Under the pieces are notes generated by a model, which ran no database searches, was not told the origin of the DNA, and saw only the letters and a list, made by a program, of their open reading frames with translations. The position numbers were made by a program, and so were the translations under genes. DNA of 55,559 nucleotides from a virus (taxonomy: Duplodnaviria; Caudoviricetes). Below, piece by piece: positions 91 through 7,000 of this stretch. Every line of letters begins with the position of its first letter. Positions within the stretch are counted from its first letter, which is position 1. The stretch is from IMG/VR virus record IMGVR_UViG_3300042293_000428, positions 1 to 55,559 of that record; one strand, written 5' to 3'.

Positions 91-609
91 TTAAGCATAG
101 GTTAAGTTTACTACCACATCATTTGCCAATATGGCACCTGTATTATTGTCTGCTAATCCACTTGTTATTGCAAGTGCAATTCCTAAAGGGAAATTAACCC
201 CCATAGAAAAAGGAATAGCTATACCAGCTCCTTGTGTATTTGCAGGAATAGGAATAGTCATTAAAGGAACATCAGTTCCTACAGTGGGAGCAGTAGCCTT
301 GTTATACAGCTTCAAGTATCTAACTGTAGATGTTAAACCTATAGCAACAATAGAATACAAATTTCCTCCAGAAGCTTTGACAACATTTGCGTTAGTTGTA
401 GCAAGTGATATTAACTTGTAAGGAGTTGTTCCATTTGATCCAGTAGTGTTAGGCCTTGGACTAATAGGAACAGGATTTGCTCCAGTATTGTCAACTGTAA
501 CATTAGAATTATTTCCTGTAACTTTTGATAATTGTTCTAACTGTTTGGCAATTTGCCATAGTAAATTAGCTTCATAACTACTTCCTATTTGTTTTGCTGG
601 TATAGCCAT
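91..609 (-). CDS. Hypothetical, probably virion-associated beta-rich protein
   Basis: 172-aa ORF with an A-rich leader; short helical N-terminus (NLLWQIAKQLEQL) followed by a small-residue, beta-strand-like domain. Confidence 0.6.
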   Translation of the reverse strand: MAIPAKQIGSSYEANLLWQIAKQLEQLSKVTGNNSNVTVDNTGANPVPISPRPNTTGSNGTTPYKLISLATTNANVVKASGGNLYSIVAIGLTSTVRYLKLYNKATAPTVGTDVPLMTIPIPANTQGAGIAIPFSMGVNFPLGIALAITSGLADNNTGAILANDVVVNLTYA

Positions 610-649
610 TTTATTTTTTATTTTTTAATTTTTATTTAAATACTACATA

Positions 650-657
650 CAAATATA
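650..657 (-). promoter_or_regulatory. Bacteroidota-type -7 promoter element (TATATTTG)
   Basis: Matches TAnnTTTG, about 40 nt upstream of the ATG at 609; no clear -33 TTTG. Confidence 0.45.
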
Positions 658-692
658 TAAAGATTATTATAAATAATAGTCTTTATATAATA

Positions 693-812
693 TTATCTAC
701 CTTGTCCTCTGTATTTTTTAGGACGTTCTTCTTTAGGACCATAAGACTTACTATGTTTTCCTGTCTTTTTAGCTCCAAATACAATTTTACGTGAATCAAC
801 TTGTTTTGCCAT
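693..812 (-). CDS. 39-aa highly basic protein MAKQVDSRKIVFGAKKTGKHSKSYGPKEERPKKYRGQGR; not in the ORF track
   Basis: ATG at 812-810, TAA at 695-693; fills the gap between neighbouring genes; Lys/Arg-rich and ends in KKYRGQGR. Confidence 0.75.
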   Translation of the reverse strand: MAKQVDSRKIVFGAKKTGKHSKSYGPKEERPKKYRGQGR

Positions 813-825
813 TACTATAAGATTT

Positions 826-1056
826 TTAAAATATTAATTCCTTAATGAATAAAATAAAAGCTGGTAATAATGTAGCAACAACATCTAACGCTTCTACACT
901 TCCTTTGTGTTTTGAATCATATGCTTCTTTTCCTACAGCAACTATTAATACAATTCCAAGAGAAATTAAATTTGAAAAAATCAATGTTGCTAAAATATAA
1001 ATAACAAATCCATATATAAAATGGTTTGCTTTATCTTGTGGTATTTGTGGTAACAT
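826..1056 (-). CDS. Small membrane protein (VanZ/YfiM-like DKxxHF...KExxD pattern)
   Basis: 76 aa with hydrophobic helices and the motifs DKANHF and GKEAYD; sits at the end of the lysis cassette. Confidence 0.6.
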   Translation of the reverse strand: MLPQIPQDKANHFIYGFVIYILATLIFSNLISLGIVLIVAVGKEAYDSKHKGSVEALDVVATLLPAFILFIKELIF

Positions 1057-1057
1057 A

Positions 1058-1669
1058 TTAAATTGATTTTAATTGAAAGTGCATTTCTTTTTTAAAAGTA
1101 CCATCTGTATTTCTTAATCTTAACTTAGTTTTTTCAGATGGTGTTATTCTATTATCAAAAACATCAACATTTTGTAATATAAATCCTTTACAACTATATT
1201 GTTTTTGTTGAACAGTTCTTCTTATGTCACAAGGATTTGTTAATAATTCTTTAGAACACTCTTTTATAGAATTCCAAACTTTATAAATATCTCCTTTCAA
1301 AGTAAATCCATATACTCTTTTTTTATTTTTATCATGAGCTTTACTTTGTTTATCTTTAATTTCTTTTGTTCCTACACCACCTTCTCCACCATACGTAAGA
1401 TTGTAACCTTTAGAATCATTTGTAGAATCATAAAAAGAAATCCAATATTTTTCTCTATCATTTATTAAATGATCATCACATTCTTCTAATACATCAAATA
1501 TAAAAATATCTTTACCATATTTATTATATGAATATTGAAGATGTTTATTTATATGTTTTCCGTATTTTAATTTTCTTAAATGTTCTTTTTGTCTAACAAT
1601 AAGAGAAATAGTTTTACCAATATAAACTTTATCGGTTAAAGTGTTTTTTATAATGTATATACAACTCAT
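1058..1669 (-). mobile_element. Free-standing GIY-YIG homing endonuclease with NUMOD-type DNA-binding C-terminus
   Basis: CIYIIKN...VYIGKT, catalytic-type R, E(REKYWI) and GYN motifs; WNSIKECSKEL NUMOD1-like helix; ATGA overlap with the endolysin stop. Confidence 0.9.
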
Positions 1670-2082
1670 ATAGTATTTAACTCAAAATGCATTCCATCTT
1701 TTCTTTTGAAATTTCCTCCCCAATAAAATCCTGCATCTGTAAAACATTTTACAAATCCTGCAGACAATACAGGAGTTACATTAAGTCCATTCCAAGCAGC
1801 ATTAACGTCAATTGCTAATCCCCATGCATGCAATGACATAGAACTTAGTCCTCTTTTCTTTCTAATATTGAAACATCCATCAAAAGTTTTAAGCTCTTTA
1901 ACAAATCCTCTATCAATAAGATTAGTGAAAGCTTTTGTTAATGGACCCACCATATCTTTATTGCAATAAAGTCTTTTAGGTAGAACACCTATTTCTAATT
2001 CTGTTGGTACATCCCAAAGAACCATTCCTGATTCTTTTACAGGATCACCATATTTCTTTAATGCTTGTGCACTTGTCACCAT
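1666..2082 (-). CDS. Endolysin, M15-family Zn peptidase (L-Ala-D-Glu peptidase-like)
   Basis: R...SLHAWGLAID motif plus WGG...DGMHFE third Zn ligand; adjacent to membrane proteins. Confidence 0.9.
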   Translation of the reverse strand: MVTSAQALKKYGDPVKESGMVLWDVPTELEIGVLPKRLYCNKDMVGPLTKAFTNLIDRGFVKELKTFDGCFNIRKKRGLSSMSLHAWGLAIDVNAAWNGLNVTPVLSAGFVKCFTDAGFYWGGNFKRKDGMHFELNTI

Positions 2083-2084
2083 AA

Positions 2085-2357
2085 TTAGTCTGTTTCATTT
2101 GTTAATGAATCTTTTTTGCTTATAATAGATGTAGAATATGTTGTTAATGACAACAAAGCTGCTATTAAACCTGCTTCTACACCAAGAAGTATAGCTACAT
2201 CAGAATAAGTTTGTCCAGGTTTAATATTATTAATAGTCTTTGATATATTCAATACAAGATTAAAAGAAAAAACAAGAGATAGCACTCTACGAATAGACAC
2301 TTTCTTATTTGTTCCTAACCATATAGGTTCTATGTATTTGAATATTTTATATATCAT
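2085..2357 (-). CDS. Putative holin
   Basis: 90 aa with two hydrophobic segments and charged termini, directly upstream of the endolysin. Confidence 0.6.
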   Translation of the reverse strand: MIYKIFKYIEPIWLGTNKKVSIRRVLSLVFSFNLVLNISKTINNIKPGQTYSDVAILLGVEAGLIAALLSLTTYSTSIISKKDSLTNETD

Positions 2358-2974
2358 TTACGTAATTTTATTTTCCAATAAGTTTGTAAGCCTACTTGCA
2401 CTTGACCATTCATATCAAGTCCTGTATATACATTATATATATGATCTGTTTTTGTTTTAAGTAATACCCCTACATTAAATTGATTAATAAGTTGTTGTGG
2501 TCCTCCTTGTAAACCTCCTCCATAATAAATTTGATTATTTCTAAGAGGGGGAAGTGTAATTGTTTTAGTTATAGTTGGATATTTTAAATCCCAAGCTACT
2601 TTTCTATAAGTAATATTGTTATGGTTTACAGTGTCATTAATATATACATGTCCTATACTATCAAGTTTAATTGTATCTTTATATACATTAAGAGCTATGT
2701 GCTCTTCTACTAGCTTAGTGTATTGTAATACTAATTTAGCATAGTTTGGATCAGGGACATAGTTAGTTCCTGGTTTCCCTGGAATAGTCTTAACTAATGT
2801 TGGTTTAGTAATTACAGTGTTCTGTTTAACTACCCACACTGTATCTGTTTTAACAGAAGGTTTTTCTGCAGGAATATTATCTTTATTGCATTTCTGTAAA
2901 AGAATAACTGCTATTAGTATTAGTATAACAACATTAAAGAAATTCTTCTTAACCCATTCTAATATAATCATCAT
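2354..2974 (-). CDS. Putative spanin-like lysis protein (N-terminal anchor/lipoprotein signal, C-terminal amphipathic beta-strands)
   Basis: KK-hydrophobic stretch-LLQKC at the N-terminus; alternating beta pattern ending YWKIKLRK; ATGA-coupled within the lysis cassette. Confidence 0.55.
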   Translation of the reverse strand: MMIILEWVKKNFFNVVILILIAVILLQKCNKDNIPAEKPSVKTDTVWVVKQNTVITKPTLVKTIPGKPGTNYVPDPNYAKLVLQYTKLVEEHIALNVYKDTIKLDSIGHVYINDTVNHNNITYRKVAWDLKYPTITKTITLPPLRNNQIYYGGGLQGGPQQLINQFNVGVLLKTKTDHIYNVYTGLDMNGQVQVGLQTYWKIKLRK

Positions 2975-3294
2975 TGTAAATTTTTATAAATTCCTGTAGC
3001 AAATTGAATAAACGCAGCTATTGCTACAATTATACCAACTGTCCATAAAATTCTATTTTTAAAGTCTTCTTGTTGTTCTAGTTTAGATTTTAAAATGTCA
3101 ATTTCTACTTTCAATGTTTTAATATCACTCACCATTCCTCCTTCTTTAGTTAAAGGATTTCCTAAAATTCCATCAATCACTTGTGATAATTTCGTATCAA
3201 TAGAGGTCATTTTATCCTCTAGATCTTCTAATCTTTGATCCATGCTCTTTAACTCTTCTTTGATTTGTCTTTCGATATTTTCCATACTTTCCAT
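2971..3294 (-). CDS. Coiled-coil protein with C-terminal transmembrane helix (XhlA/holin-associated-like)
   Basis: Heptad pattern followed by ILWTVGIIVAIAAFIQF. Start at 3294 (MESMEN) preferred over 3327, which abuts the promoter. Confidence 0.6.
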   Translation of the reverse strand: MESMENIERQIKEELKSMDQRLEDLEDKMTSIDTKLSQVIDGILGNPLTKEGGMVSDIKTLKVEIDILKSKLEQQEDFKNRILWTVGIIVAIAAFIQFATGIYKNLQ

Positions 3295-3334
3295 AAATAG
3301 TAACAATATAATTAAATGGATTACCATTTATAAG

Positions 3335-3399
3335 CAAATATAAATTTTATTTATTACATATTAAAACAACTAAAAATTATATTCTTCATAATATAGCAT
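3335..3399 (-). promoter_or_regulatory. Lysis-cassette promoter (-7 TATATTTG at 3342-3335) with upstream GCTATATTAT box (3397-3388)
   Basis: TAnnTTTG match; the same box recurs at 4055 and 55348. Confidence 0.6.
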
Positions 3400-3450
3400 A
3401 AATGAAAATTATTTTTTAGTAATCAATTTCTATATTATTTGTTATTTAAT

Positions 3451-4068: not shown

Positions 4069-7000
4069 TTATCTTCTACTTTCTTTTTGAATTGTTATGT
4101 CAAATTCTTTAGCAAACTCAGAATCAAGTATTGCTCCATATGTCAACAATGATTTTGTTACAGGTAACATCTTAGCTAAATATTTAATAGGTTTTGCTTT
4201 TTCTCTAACTTCTTCTGAAGATAATGATGGGTCAAATAATTCAAAGCCTAATACTTGGCTAGAAAAATGAGACATGAATTTTATTACATCTGAAAAAAGT
4301 CCTATAGCAGGAAACATTGATCCTTCTAAAATTTTCTCTGCTTCTAATGGATTATAAAAGAATGAAAGTTCCCCAACAAATTTATCTACAACTCTTTGAG
4401 AAAATCTATAAAAGTTTTTAGTTGCTATATCATCATCATCATCGTCAGGAGCTAATAGTCCCATAGATAATTTTAAACCAAACAAAACAAGTAACATTGT
4501 TAATTCCTGGACCTGATTTTTTAAATTTGTTTTAATCATGTCATTGAAATCTTCTTTTGTCATAGTAAATTTTTCACCTGTTCTTTTTTGATAAGCTTGT
4601 GCATAGTCTAAATACATTTTATCTAATAAAAGAATACCTTTATCATTAACTTGTAATATATTTAAAACATTAAAACTTTTATCTTGAACAGAAGAAATCA
4701 ATACTCCCCACCAAAGTCTAACTCTACCAATATCATATTTCTCTCCTTCAGTTAAACCATCGTCATCTATTGTTACAGAAAAATCATCTGATATTTTTCT
4801 CAATTCTCCAAAACGTGTATCAACAAGTTTAGGAATCCAGTTCTTAAATACCATCATAGATCTTCCCCAAACACTCATTGACATTCTATTTATGTCAGAA
4901 TCTGACATACCTCCAGTTGCATTTCTAGAAATACGTCTACTAAGTTTTGTAACTCTATCTATTTCTTTATAGTTGTTTAAATCAAAACCAGGAATGACAA
5001 GTTTATCATTTTCCAACTTCATTGTATTAGTTATAGAACTTGTATTTTTTAATTCTATAATTTCATCTTCTATCTTTTTAGAATCTCTTGCATAATCACT
5101 TGCAGAATTATATCTATCTTTATATTTATTTTTTACAAACTCTCTAATGTTAACAATTTTTCCATCAATAATCATTGAGTTATCTAATAATGTCATAAAA
5201 ATAGATTTCTCAACATGTTGTTCAGGTTCTCTCATAAACACCATTAACCAATCAGAAAAATTTTGTTGAGTTATTTTTGATAACCCTGCTTCTTTTAATT
5301 TATCATATGTAGGATCATCTTTAAGTGGCATGAAAGTATCTATTAATTGTAAAAACATTTTACGATCATCATTGTCCTTAAATTTACTACCTATTAAACC
5401 ATTAAAGTTTTTAAAATAATCCCATTTAGTAAAATAGTTACCTGCTTGTGTAATCACCTGAATGTTTGCACCAAATAAATTCACTGCTCCTGATATAATA
5501 TCTAACCCTAATGTTTTTAATTGAAAAGTTCTATTTAGAGTATCCATAGATTTGAACAAAGAAGTGGCACTAGGTTTATCTAAATCTGTAAAAACTTCTT
5601 TACCTGCAACACCATTTATAATTTTTTTCATTTGTTTCATGATACCTGTACTTATAGAAGTATCTGTATCAGAAAGAGGATATTTTTGTTCATATAGTAG
5701 AGCTCTTAGAAAATCATCAAACATTTTAGTGTTTTGTTCATTTCCTTCTAATTCTTCTGGCTTACCGTTAGGTTTTAGTATAACATCTCCTGATCTTGTT
5801 GTAGCTAAATGTTTTTTAAAGCCTTCTACAGTTTTAATAAGCTGTGCTTGTCCTTCTACTTCAGAAAGATATTTGTAGTTATGCATATGATTTATATATA
5901 AAATCATATTCTTGAAAAGATCTTCACTTACATCTGTGTAATCATGTATAGTATTACCTGCTTCATCTTTGCTCATTGAAAAATCTGAAGTGTAATACTT
6001 TGGTATACTATGTTCTATCTCTCCAGTTAATTCATTTACATTACCAAAACCAATATCATCTGCTTGTAAAGATAATCCATTACCAAAATTCATTACAGAA
6101 GAAAGAGAAAAATCCCAAGCAAGACTTTCAGCCATTGATTTTCTTACAAATGGTAAAAATGTAGAATGAACTTTATTCTCTAAGTATCCAATATCAGCTG
6201 ATTTCTTGTTTGTTTTAATTAGGAAGTTATATAAATCAAACAGCTCTTTATCATTTTGAATATTTTTATATTCATCTGTTAACCATGGAGAAGATTCAAT
6301 TCCATTTTTATCTATAGACTTTAGAGGATGTCTTTTAATAATATAATTATTCCATCCTGTAAAATCATTTCTAGTAACGTCAAGCATTCTCTTTTCTTGA
6401 AGAATAAGTTTGGCCATCATTTCTTTATCTTCAGAATAAATTCTTTTAATTCTTTCTATTCTTTTTTCTAAAACTTCTTTTGCTTCTTTTAGATAACCTT
6501 CTCTATCTAAATTATTGTATAACCATTCTTTACTAGGAGATTCTTCAGCAGCATTTTTATCAACTAAATCATAAAATTCTTTTTTATATTTATATATAAT
6601 TTTATTAACTAATTTATTCTTGTCATCTTTTTGATATAACTGTTGTACATACTTTCTAACATCTCCTCCTTTATCAGTTATTCTTTTTCTAATAGACATT
6701 AACTCTTCAACTTCTTTTAATGCATCTCTTCTAGCTCTACCTTTAGCATTTGTAACTAATTTAAATAATATACTAACAGAAGGTAGAGGAACTTCTGAAG
6801 CTCCTCTAAAAAAAGAACCTATTCCAGACCAAACAGCTTGTGGAGATAACAAACCTTGTACAAGATTTCTTTCTCCCATAAACTTATCTGCAAATTTTCC
6901 AGTAATGTCTTCTACTTTTTTAGAAGATAAACGAATAAGTTTTGCTTCACTATCTATACTTTCTAAATAAGTTTTACGTTTAGCTAAATCTTCTTTTTGT

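Follow-up and report, generated by a model that had tools for sequence, protein, structure and literature searches.

On the minus strand of the viral contig IMGVR_UViG_3300042293_000428 (Caudoviricetes; 55,559 nt, hereafter the window), an endolysin gene (2082-1666) is followed by an overlapping gene for a GIY-YIG homing endonuclease (1669-1058). We interpret this arrangement, with a probability of roughly 0.87, as a mobile homing-endonuclease cassette without intron or intein, lodged in the 3' coding portion of a phage endolysin gene. On this reading, it consists of two parts. The first is a substitute endolysin end of at least 20 codons, running to MHFELNTI and a TGA stop, with which the endolysin stays whole; the second is the GIY-YIG endonuclease gene, whose ATG overlaps the substitute stop. 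The endonuclease frame lacks a stop of its own, reads into the displaced native tail of the endolysin, MHFQLKSI, and terminates at the native stop. Since that stop lies 1 nt before the next gene, tight operon spacing is kept. The window has an estimated completeness of 48%, among cultured phages those of Flavobacterium are closest to it in sequence, and the metagenome runs that contain this phage are mostly from freshwater, lake, soil and wetland.

The endolysin open reading frame (ORF) is complete, encodes 138 amino acids (aa) with a Peptidase_M15_4 match (Pfam PF13539, E 8e-14) and ends in GMHFELNTI followed by TGA. The endonuclease ORF, matched by Pfam PF01541 and by PHROG homing endonuclease families, encodes 203 aa and ends in EMHFQLKSI followed by TAA. 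The last 27 nt of the two genes, here called the left copy (1692-1666) and the right copy (1084-1058), share 19 of 27 nt in register by codon to the stop, and 5 of the last 9 residues are shared by the two proteins. Thus, coordinates, sequences and nucleotide identity confirm the codon-for-codon alignment of the two ends on which an original prediction, made from the window sequence, was built. The coupling of the endonuclease start to the new endolysin stop, which it had also described, corresponds to an ATGA overlap at 1669-1666. The degenerate 17-nt pattern ATGCAYTTYSARTTAAA has exactly two matches in the window (1068-1084 and 1676-1692, both on the minus strand), as compared to 0.05 expected, and none of 100 shuffled sequences reached two or more. 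Of the 107 ORFs of at least 50 aa, no two lying on one strand within 3 kb of each other, apart from the endolysin and the endonuclease, have 5 or more of their last 9 residues in common.

The element had been described as a splicing-free one in a phage lysis gene, and the data agree. A search of window positions 600-2600 against Rfam gave no match at E <= 1, and no intron was found. The endolysin stop codon precedes the endonuclease, which is read in another frame, so that the gene is not carried by an intron or intein.

Occupied and empty alleles of the endolysin gene

Both forms of the site were found in X5, an assembled public lake metagenome run whose contigs were compared with the window. 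One contig of 247 nt (depth ~5) displays no difference over window positions 901-1084, continues with 20 other letters and resumes at 1713-1755. The sole change in the latter segment is at 1725 (Asp to Tyr in the occupied allele), positions 1726-1755 being identical. On the minus strand of this empty allele the endolysin ends in GFDWGGTWTRKDGMHFQLKSI and a stop codon (the native end is also denoted ...TWTRKDGMHFQLKSI), and after 1 nt the 76-aa gene begins that in the window (1056-826) starts 1 nt past the endonuclease stop. In the occupied allele, 628 nt (1085-1712) replace 20 nt, a net gain of 608 nt. Two occupied-form contigs in the same run, covering 1374-1524 and 1505-1755, have no differences from the window. 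Like genomes in one run are thus polymorphic for the presence or absence of the insert at a single site.

The residues encoded by the 20 extra letters of the empty allele are those of the native consensus, and no long exact word is common to the two tail copies, which makes collapse of a repeat during assembly an unlikely explanation of the contig. Contigs of the shared upstream part, with the endolysin and upstream genes, begin at 1726 in run X5 and at 1727 in X6, an independent metagenome run; this is the point where the alleles begin to differ, as expected for a branch in the assembly graph at a polymorphic site. Loose contig ends at 1713-1718 in runs X5, X6 and X10 read the native TW(T/K)R(K/R)DGMHF.

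The empty allele places the insertion point exactly where it had been predicted, just before the MHF codons, and the uninterrupted endolysin in the X5 contig directly adjoins the 76-aa gene, as had been anticipated. The right copy, which supplies the endonuclease ORF with its final 8 codons and its stop (MHFQLKSI and TAA), shows no difference from the empty allele, in line with the suggestion that the element uses the original endolysin tail as its own C-terminus. The left copy differs from the empty allele at 8 of 27 nt, and there are further differences upstream, to 1725. The claim that a recoded copy of the last ~8 codons was brought in can be refined accordingly: the imported or converted endolysin sequence is longer than proposed. 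This replacement end (1666-1725, YWGGNFKRKDGMHFELNTI and stop), delimited by the comparison with the empty allele and by a switch between L022-like and L033-like sequence described below, reaches at least 20 codons upstream, to 1725.

The native form of the gene end was also seen in relatives. A scan of viral contigs yielded 80 loci with endolysins 70-84% identical to that of the window; with the window and two further loci (L085 and L086), the set comprises 83 loci, 74 of which are without an endonuclease bearing a remnant tail. As foreseen in the original prediction, these endonuclease-free loci end in MHFQL..I (69 of 74) rather than in MHFELNTI (0 of 74), and the GMHFQLKSI end occurs in 13 of the 80 loci. 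At 26 of its 27 nt, the right copy of the window agrees with the native tails of L011, L012, L014 and L024, whereas no native tail agrees with the left copy at more than 24 of 27 nt. The native 3' end thus persists, displaced, on the downstream side and is closer to the native ends of the relatives than the inserted copy is. The phage isolate collection contained no close relative of the window endonuclease (best 32% identity), and its best endolysin, L001 (54%), has a tail that continues past MHFQL and is uninformative on the junction. A search of viral contigs with the 76-aa gene gave a best match of 55% identity, and none of the matches adjoined an endolysin in the native layout.

Five endonuclease-free loci (L019, L041, L042, L044 and L058) end in MHFEL or MHFEI like the left copies of the cassette, the last codons of L019 and L041 being of native type. 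Such alleles could be footprints of cassette loss via recombination between the tail copies, or resistant alleles.

The duplicated piece contains the His of the endolysin motif D..HF(Q/E)L. A search of the PDB with the window endolysin alone gave no matches, and a profile of 22 endolysins did match: it aligns to the Listeria phage L-alanyl-D-glutamate peptidase 2vo9 (E 1.6e-4), with its SxH..D and D..HFEL motifs, and to a second solved L-alanyl-D-glutamate peptidase, 8q2g. Since the alignment extends across both motifs, the duplicated piece includes the last conserved His, as had been claimed. We take this His to be a zinc ligand, and the other conserved His and Asp residues of the endolysin to have metal-ligand roles, as in the literature on LAS enzymes. 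The window endolysin has H85, D92, D129 and H132, all invariant in the 22 sequences, within SLHAWGLAID and DGMHF, and the Peptidase M15 motifs H-x6-D and D-x-x-H are present. The solved enzymes read HFEL in 2vo9 and HFQL in 8q2g, which suggests that a replacement end with the Glu variant is plausibly functional.

The endonuclease and its C-terminal tail

The endonuclease proper corresponds to residues 1-195 (1669-1085). Its GIY-YIG domain (residues ~2-98) is matched by Pfam PF01541 over residues 2-82 (E 6.8e-8), and the PHROG homing endonuclease families cover residues 1-174. Comparison by Foldseek identified the catalytic domain of I-TevI (1mk0 and 1ln0), with template modelling scores of 0.87-0.89 (target-normalised) and 38-40% identity. 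The set of homologues comprised 26 proteins at least 48% identical to the window enzyme, and in the resulting 27-sequence alignment Y5, Y16, R26, H30, H39, E73 and N90 are invariant, as in a GIY-YIG catalytic core. Presumably, these residues correspond to the catalytic residues in the I-TevI numbering. Based on the predicted I-TevI-like fold and the invariant core, the enzyme looks intact. Residues 119-190 are modelled confidently as strands and helices, with I-HmuI as the only and weak structural match (E 0.023), and no Pfam DNA-binding family was found in the protein at E <= 0.01.

The conserved body ends before the tail. G190 is invariant in the 27 sequences and F192 nearly so, and the C-terminal region is conserved through ..RN.DGTF, after which the endings of the 26 homologues vary. 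Some have the full MHFQL..I, and others have lost it: a frameshift gives the end IRYALST in P0006, P0011 and L086, a stop directly follows DGTFK in P0009, P0014 and P0016, and an internal deletion in P0020 leaves DGTFKQLSKI. P0006 and P0011, which share the shifted end, are two diverged proteins. In L086 (2501-3110), the frame of the endonuclease is shifted by a 1-nt insertion, and the DNA keeps the native GMHFQLKTI and stop in the old frame. Longer native remnants were observed in P0024 (..WKRKDGMHFQLSKIS), P0025 (..GGVWRRPDGMHFQLASI) and P0026 (..KDGMHFQLSKI). More distant GIY-YIG proteins (P0027 onward) are without the tail. AlphaFold modelled residues 1-190 well (mean predicted local distance difference test score, pLDDT, of 85), and residues 196-203 with pLDDT below 50.

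These results bear on the idea that MHFQLKSI has nothing to do with the endolysin and either contributes to endonuclease function or resembles the endolysin tail by chance. Many subfamily members do retain the motif, as this idea would have it. The tail is nevertheless frameshifted, truncated or deleted in relatives, it is modelled at low confidence, the PHROG and Pfam matches stop at or before residue 174, and the match of 26 of 27 nt to native endolysin tails is left without explanation, so that we regard the idea as hardly credible. A metagenome scan based on the endonuclease alignment, which used generic GIY-YIG patterns, gave 80 loci, of which only L102 was close; the remaining 79, whose GIY-YIG genes are more distant, were used as controls, and none of them carries MH[FM][QE][LI] in any frame. 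All 7 contigs that show this endonuclease subfamily in context have it at the 3' end of an endolysin. A tail general to GIY-YIG proteins at unrelated loci, named in the original prediction as the observation that would speak against it, was thus not encountered. Judged by the alignment and the predicted structure, the endonuclease is a protein that has no need of the tail.

We also considered whether DGTF itself was a piece of the endolysin GGTW motif. This was ruled out, because DGTF-like residues are conserved in all 27 members, and because in P0025 the full GGVW... remnant comes after the DGTF-like residues.

Distribution of the insertion and its surroundings

Endonucleases of the window type (71-80% identical) follow the endolysin in L023, L033, L083, L085 and L086, and L102 has a relative of 70% identity in the same place. 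All six left copies read MHFEL. The right copies read MHFQL followed by NRI, KTI or KQI, and that of L102 is shortened to QLNTI. The insert measured 608-609 nt in five of five loci with the window-type endonuclease (type A). Three further endonucleases occupy the same position, each ending in a native-type remnant: a GIY-YIG ORF in L067 (..WQHQLKNI), a second in L074 (..NMHFQLKSIGL), and an ORF with HNH_3 and NUMOD4 domains in L035 and L043 (..NGMHFQLKSI). The site is therefore occupied by at least four endonuclease types, and the ATGA overlap recurs in L023, L033, L085, L086, L067 and L074. Within the 80 loci of the endolysin scan, six are occupied (L023, L033, L035, L043, L067 and L074).

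For occupied and empty loci with a common downstream gene, homology begins exactly at the remnant. This was observed for L023 and empty L009 (78% identity of 349 nt), for L067 and L102, each paired with empty L060 (82% and 84% identity, respectively), and for L035 and empty L041 (65% identity), with which L043 also pairs. The GIY-YIG enzyme of L074 (3414-3968) and the HNH enzyme of L035 (1489-2004) have a 72-aa C-terminal module in common (46% identity, E 1e-18), so that an exchange of nuclease domains on a single, putatively DNA-binding (targeting) module seems to have taken place. The window and L067 enzymes have the catalytic domain alone in common.

In L047 (3420-3938), and at the same position in L048, a 173-aa Cys-rich ORF with CxxC pairs follows the endolysin with overlapping stop and start codons. 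It is without a remnant tail and has no Pfam match, and could represent a further insertion of a nuclease-like gene.

In a tree of 83 rows, built on 348 columns from the 5' part of the endolysin, the five type-A rows occupy at least three separate positions. The window stands beside the endonuclease-free L022, L023 lies inside the clade of endonuclease-free loci starred in the tree, and L033 is sister to L074, the bearer of a different endonuclease. Forcing the five rows into a single clade cost 132 log-likelihood units and was rejected (approximately unbiased test, p = 0.0017). The last 23 codons of the cassette-bearing endolysins were mutual best matches (0.80-0.86, as compared to 0.69-0.80 for their 5' parts), a grouping of the 3' part that rests on 69 nt. 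Informative sites show that the window is L022-like to approximately alignment nt 366 and L033-like from approximately nt 377. This breakpoint lies ~70 nt before the stop, in agreement with the boundary at 1725 in the comparison with the empty allele. The inserted end thus groups apart from the lineage of its host gene, as expected for an end of foreign origin. Five or more different sequences lie downstream of the cassette in the seven contigs that bear it. We conclude that the cassette is spread over unrelated endolysin backbones and different downstream genes.

The structure is formally equivalent to a 27-nt direct repeat that flanks an endonuclease gene, and it could have arisen by insertion after an intact endolysin stop with local duplication of the tail, as a target-site or tandem duplication, and without import of a foreign end. 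We consider this very unlikely. The copy that matches the empty allele is the right one, whereas the left copy departs from it both within the 27 nt and upstream. Moreover, the left copies of different loci are closer to each other than the 5' parts of their genes are, and duplication followed by drift would not yield left copies common to unrelated backbones.

The minus strand of the region is a tightly packed gene run according to the ORF calls. A 206-aa ORF (2974-2354) and a 90-aa membrane-type ORF (2357-2085) lie upstream of the endolysin, and the 76-aa gene, its native downstream neighbour, is likewise of membrane type. The promoter scan of positions 600-3400 gave 20 promoter-like sites against 20.4 expected, and the terminator scan of the same positions gave a single terminator-like site, located outside the endolysin and endonuclease locus. 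At 693-812 on the minus strand, the window encodes a member of a lysine-rich protein family of 39-49 aa (MAK... to ..YRGQGR) that is often found directly after the endolysin. The family also occurs 3' of the endolysin in L006, L009, L011, L030, L046, L052, L056, L060, L064, L072 and L081, frequently with overlapping stop and start codons, and the window copy has no Pfam or PHROG match. The first ~30 residues of a 172-aa ORF (91-609, minus strand) recur at the starts of at least two adjacent ORFs in related contigs, for example at 5230-5313 and 5898-5975 in L009 and at 4635-4730 and 4789-4887 in L047, which suggests an N-terminal module shared by otherwise unlike proteins.

Proposed mechanism and relation to known elements

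The comparison of alleles shows a 608-nt insertion immediately 5' of the MHF codons, which supplies a new MHFEL..I end together with the endonuclease, and conversion of at least 12 further upstream codons. We infer that the enzyme cleaves alleles without an endonuclease within or close to the conserved codons for D-G-M-H-F-Q-L, and that the break is repaired from a co-infecting genome that bears the cassette. The body of the endolysin would provide homology on the left, and the 27-nt remnant with the sequence that follows would provide it on the right. The cassette allele would be immune, since the site is split and the left copy changed (e.g., from CAA to GAG or GAA). Cutting and repair of this kind are modelled on the established behaviour of GIY-YIG and HNH homing endonucleases (PMC2988022, a review of T4). 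With regard to immunity, the Gln codon is replaced by Glu in 6 of 6 type-A left copies, as compared to 4 of 61 distinct endonuclease-free sequences (p = 2e-6 in a Fisher test, which ignores shared ancestry).

A bolder reading, to which we would give somewhat less than even odds, is that the 27-nt remnant serves as a working, portable downstream homology arm and as a translational adaptor. Homing could then proceed into any phage with this endolysin, regardless of the downstream gene, with the crossover within ~17-27 nt. The variety of downstream sequences next to the cassette fits this reading, as does the retention of the remnant DNA in the locus where the endonuclease frame is shifted. So does the adoption of one layout by four or more endonuclease lineages, among them a GIY-YIG enzyme and an HNH enzyme that seem to be built on one DNA-binding module. 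In addition, the endonucleases closest to that of the window, P0001 (91%) and L023 (80%), end in NRI, whereas the window has KSI as in the empty allele, a difference that fits a crossover inside the remnant. If this reading is true, the rare endonuclease-free MHFEL alleles would mark sites from which recombination between the two copies has removed the cassette.

Several observations weigh against the cassette interpretation or its mechanistic details. The empty allele rests on one short assembled contig. Junctions of a mosaic type at the gene end are common even without endonucleases; L035 and L047, for example, are nearly identical over ~400 columns and diverge in the last 40 nt, so that some of the patchwork may stem from ordinary recombination. 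The left copy of L043 keeps Gln, and the change from CAA to GAR is thus not universal among occupied sites. Furthermore, 5 of the 74 endonuclease-free loci have Glu in place of Gln, which together with L043 opposes a simple account of immunity. Cleavage, target site, immunity and the role of the remnant as a homology arm are inferred from sequence comparisons.

Some of these points could also be explained by an old, static insertion with an inactive or domesticated endonuclease, the presence or absence of the insert, the patchy endolysin trees and the variety of downstream genes all having been generated by ordinary homologous and illegitimate recombination among mosaic phages. The endonuclease-free relatives, with their many downstream genes, also switch neighbours at this gene end, and several members of the endonuclease family have decayed ends, as such an explanation would predict. 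On the other hand, the catalytic core is invariant in the 27 sequences down to 50% identity and the predicted fold is that of I-TevI, which points to purifying selection on the nuclease. Four endonuclease types at the same few codons are not predicted by neutral recombination. Finally, the two alleles in one lake metagenome differ just by the cassette and the converted flank and are identical beyond, which is the signature expected of a recent homing event. We therefore consider a static insertion unlikely and favour the mobile cassette.

Judged by analogy of architecture, the closest known kind of element is the mobile ORFs (mORFs) of fungal mitochondria. Carriers of a foreign gene 3' end have been described in atp6, atp9, cox2 and nad3 of Glomus sp. 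(PMC3630166), and a mORF in atp6 of Allomyces macrogynus is known to us as cited there (reference 48). In these mORFs, an endonuclease ORF is located in the 3' part of the host gene (GIY-YIG in atp9, LAGLIDADG in the others), an in-frame substitute C-terminal piece is brought along, and the native C-terminus stays downstream as a duplicate that is closer to relatives than the inserted piece. The window shares these features, and the resemblance to fungal 3'-end replacement noted in the original prediction therefore holds at the level of architecture. The host ORF is whole and the invariant endolysin residues are retained, as in a substitute 3' end of the fungal type. In contrast to the fungal mORFs, the present element resides in an endolysin gene of a phage, its duplicated piece spans just 27 nt, and the endonuclease is a separate, ATGA-coupled ORF that is not fused to the host protein and ends with the native tail and stop that were displaced. 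Moreover, at least four endonuclease types share the site.

Other known elements resemble the cassette in part. The free-standing Seg (GIY-YIG) and Mob (HNH) endonucleases of T4-type phages perform intronless homing by double-strand-break repair with co-conversion of flanking markers (PMC2988022). They are phage-borne and of the same enzyme families as those described here, and the catalytic domain of the window enzyme is I-TevI-like. Unlike the intergenic Seg and Mob genes, the window endonuclease lies within coding sequence that is repaired by an imported end. In the text of the T4 review (PMC2988022), the string 'duplicat' does not occur. Endonucleases in introns and inteins, such as I-TevI in the td intron, similarly have a target that encodes a conserved active site and avoid harm to the host gene; unlike in those systems, there is no splicing element here, and harm would be avoided at the DNA level by replacement of the gene end. 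There is also a conceptual analogy to the synthetic Cleave and Rescue drives (10.1101/2019.12.13.876169), which link a nuclease against an essential gene to a cleavage-resistant recoded part. Those elements differ from the cassette in that they are engineered and act in trans by killing non-carriers.

In the literature searched, from which subscription journals were largely outside, we found no phage case of an endonuclease that replaces a 3' gene end, and a published case may exist. New here are the phage host, the endolysin gene, the ORF that borrows a displaced tail and the site common to several endonuclease types.

The usual view is that a homing endonuclease gene enters an essential coding sequence only within an intron or intein, and otherwise remains intergenic. 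The locus described here would represent a third route in phages, in which the element replaces, at the DNA level, the end of the gene that it interrupts and draws on the displaced end as a source of its stop and perhaps also of homology. As such, it would be a natural and compact (~0.6 kb) counterpart of 'cleave and rescue' designs. The block of endolysin codons for the active site appears as a hot spot for several nuclease families. For annotation, the locus is a warning that what looks like a short C-terminal 'motif' in a phage endonuclease can be left over from a neighbouring gene. Since the occupied and empty alleles of one phage are both known, the system is directly testable.

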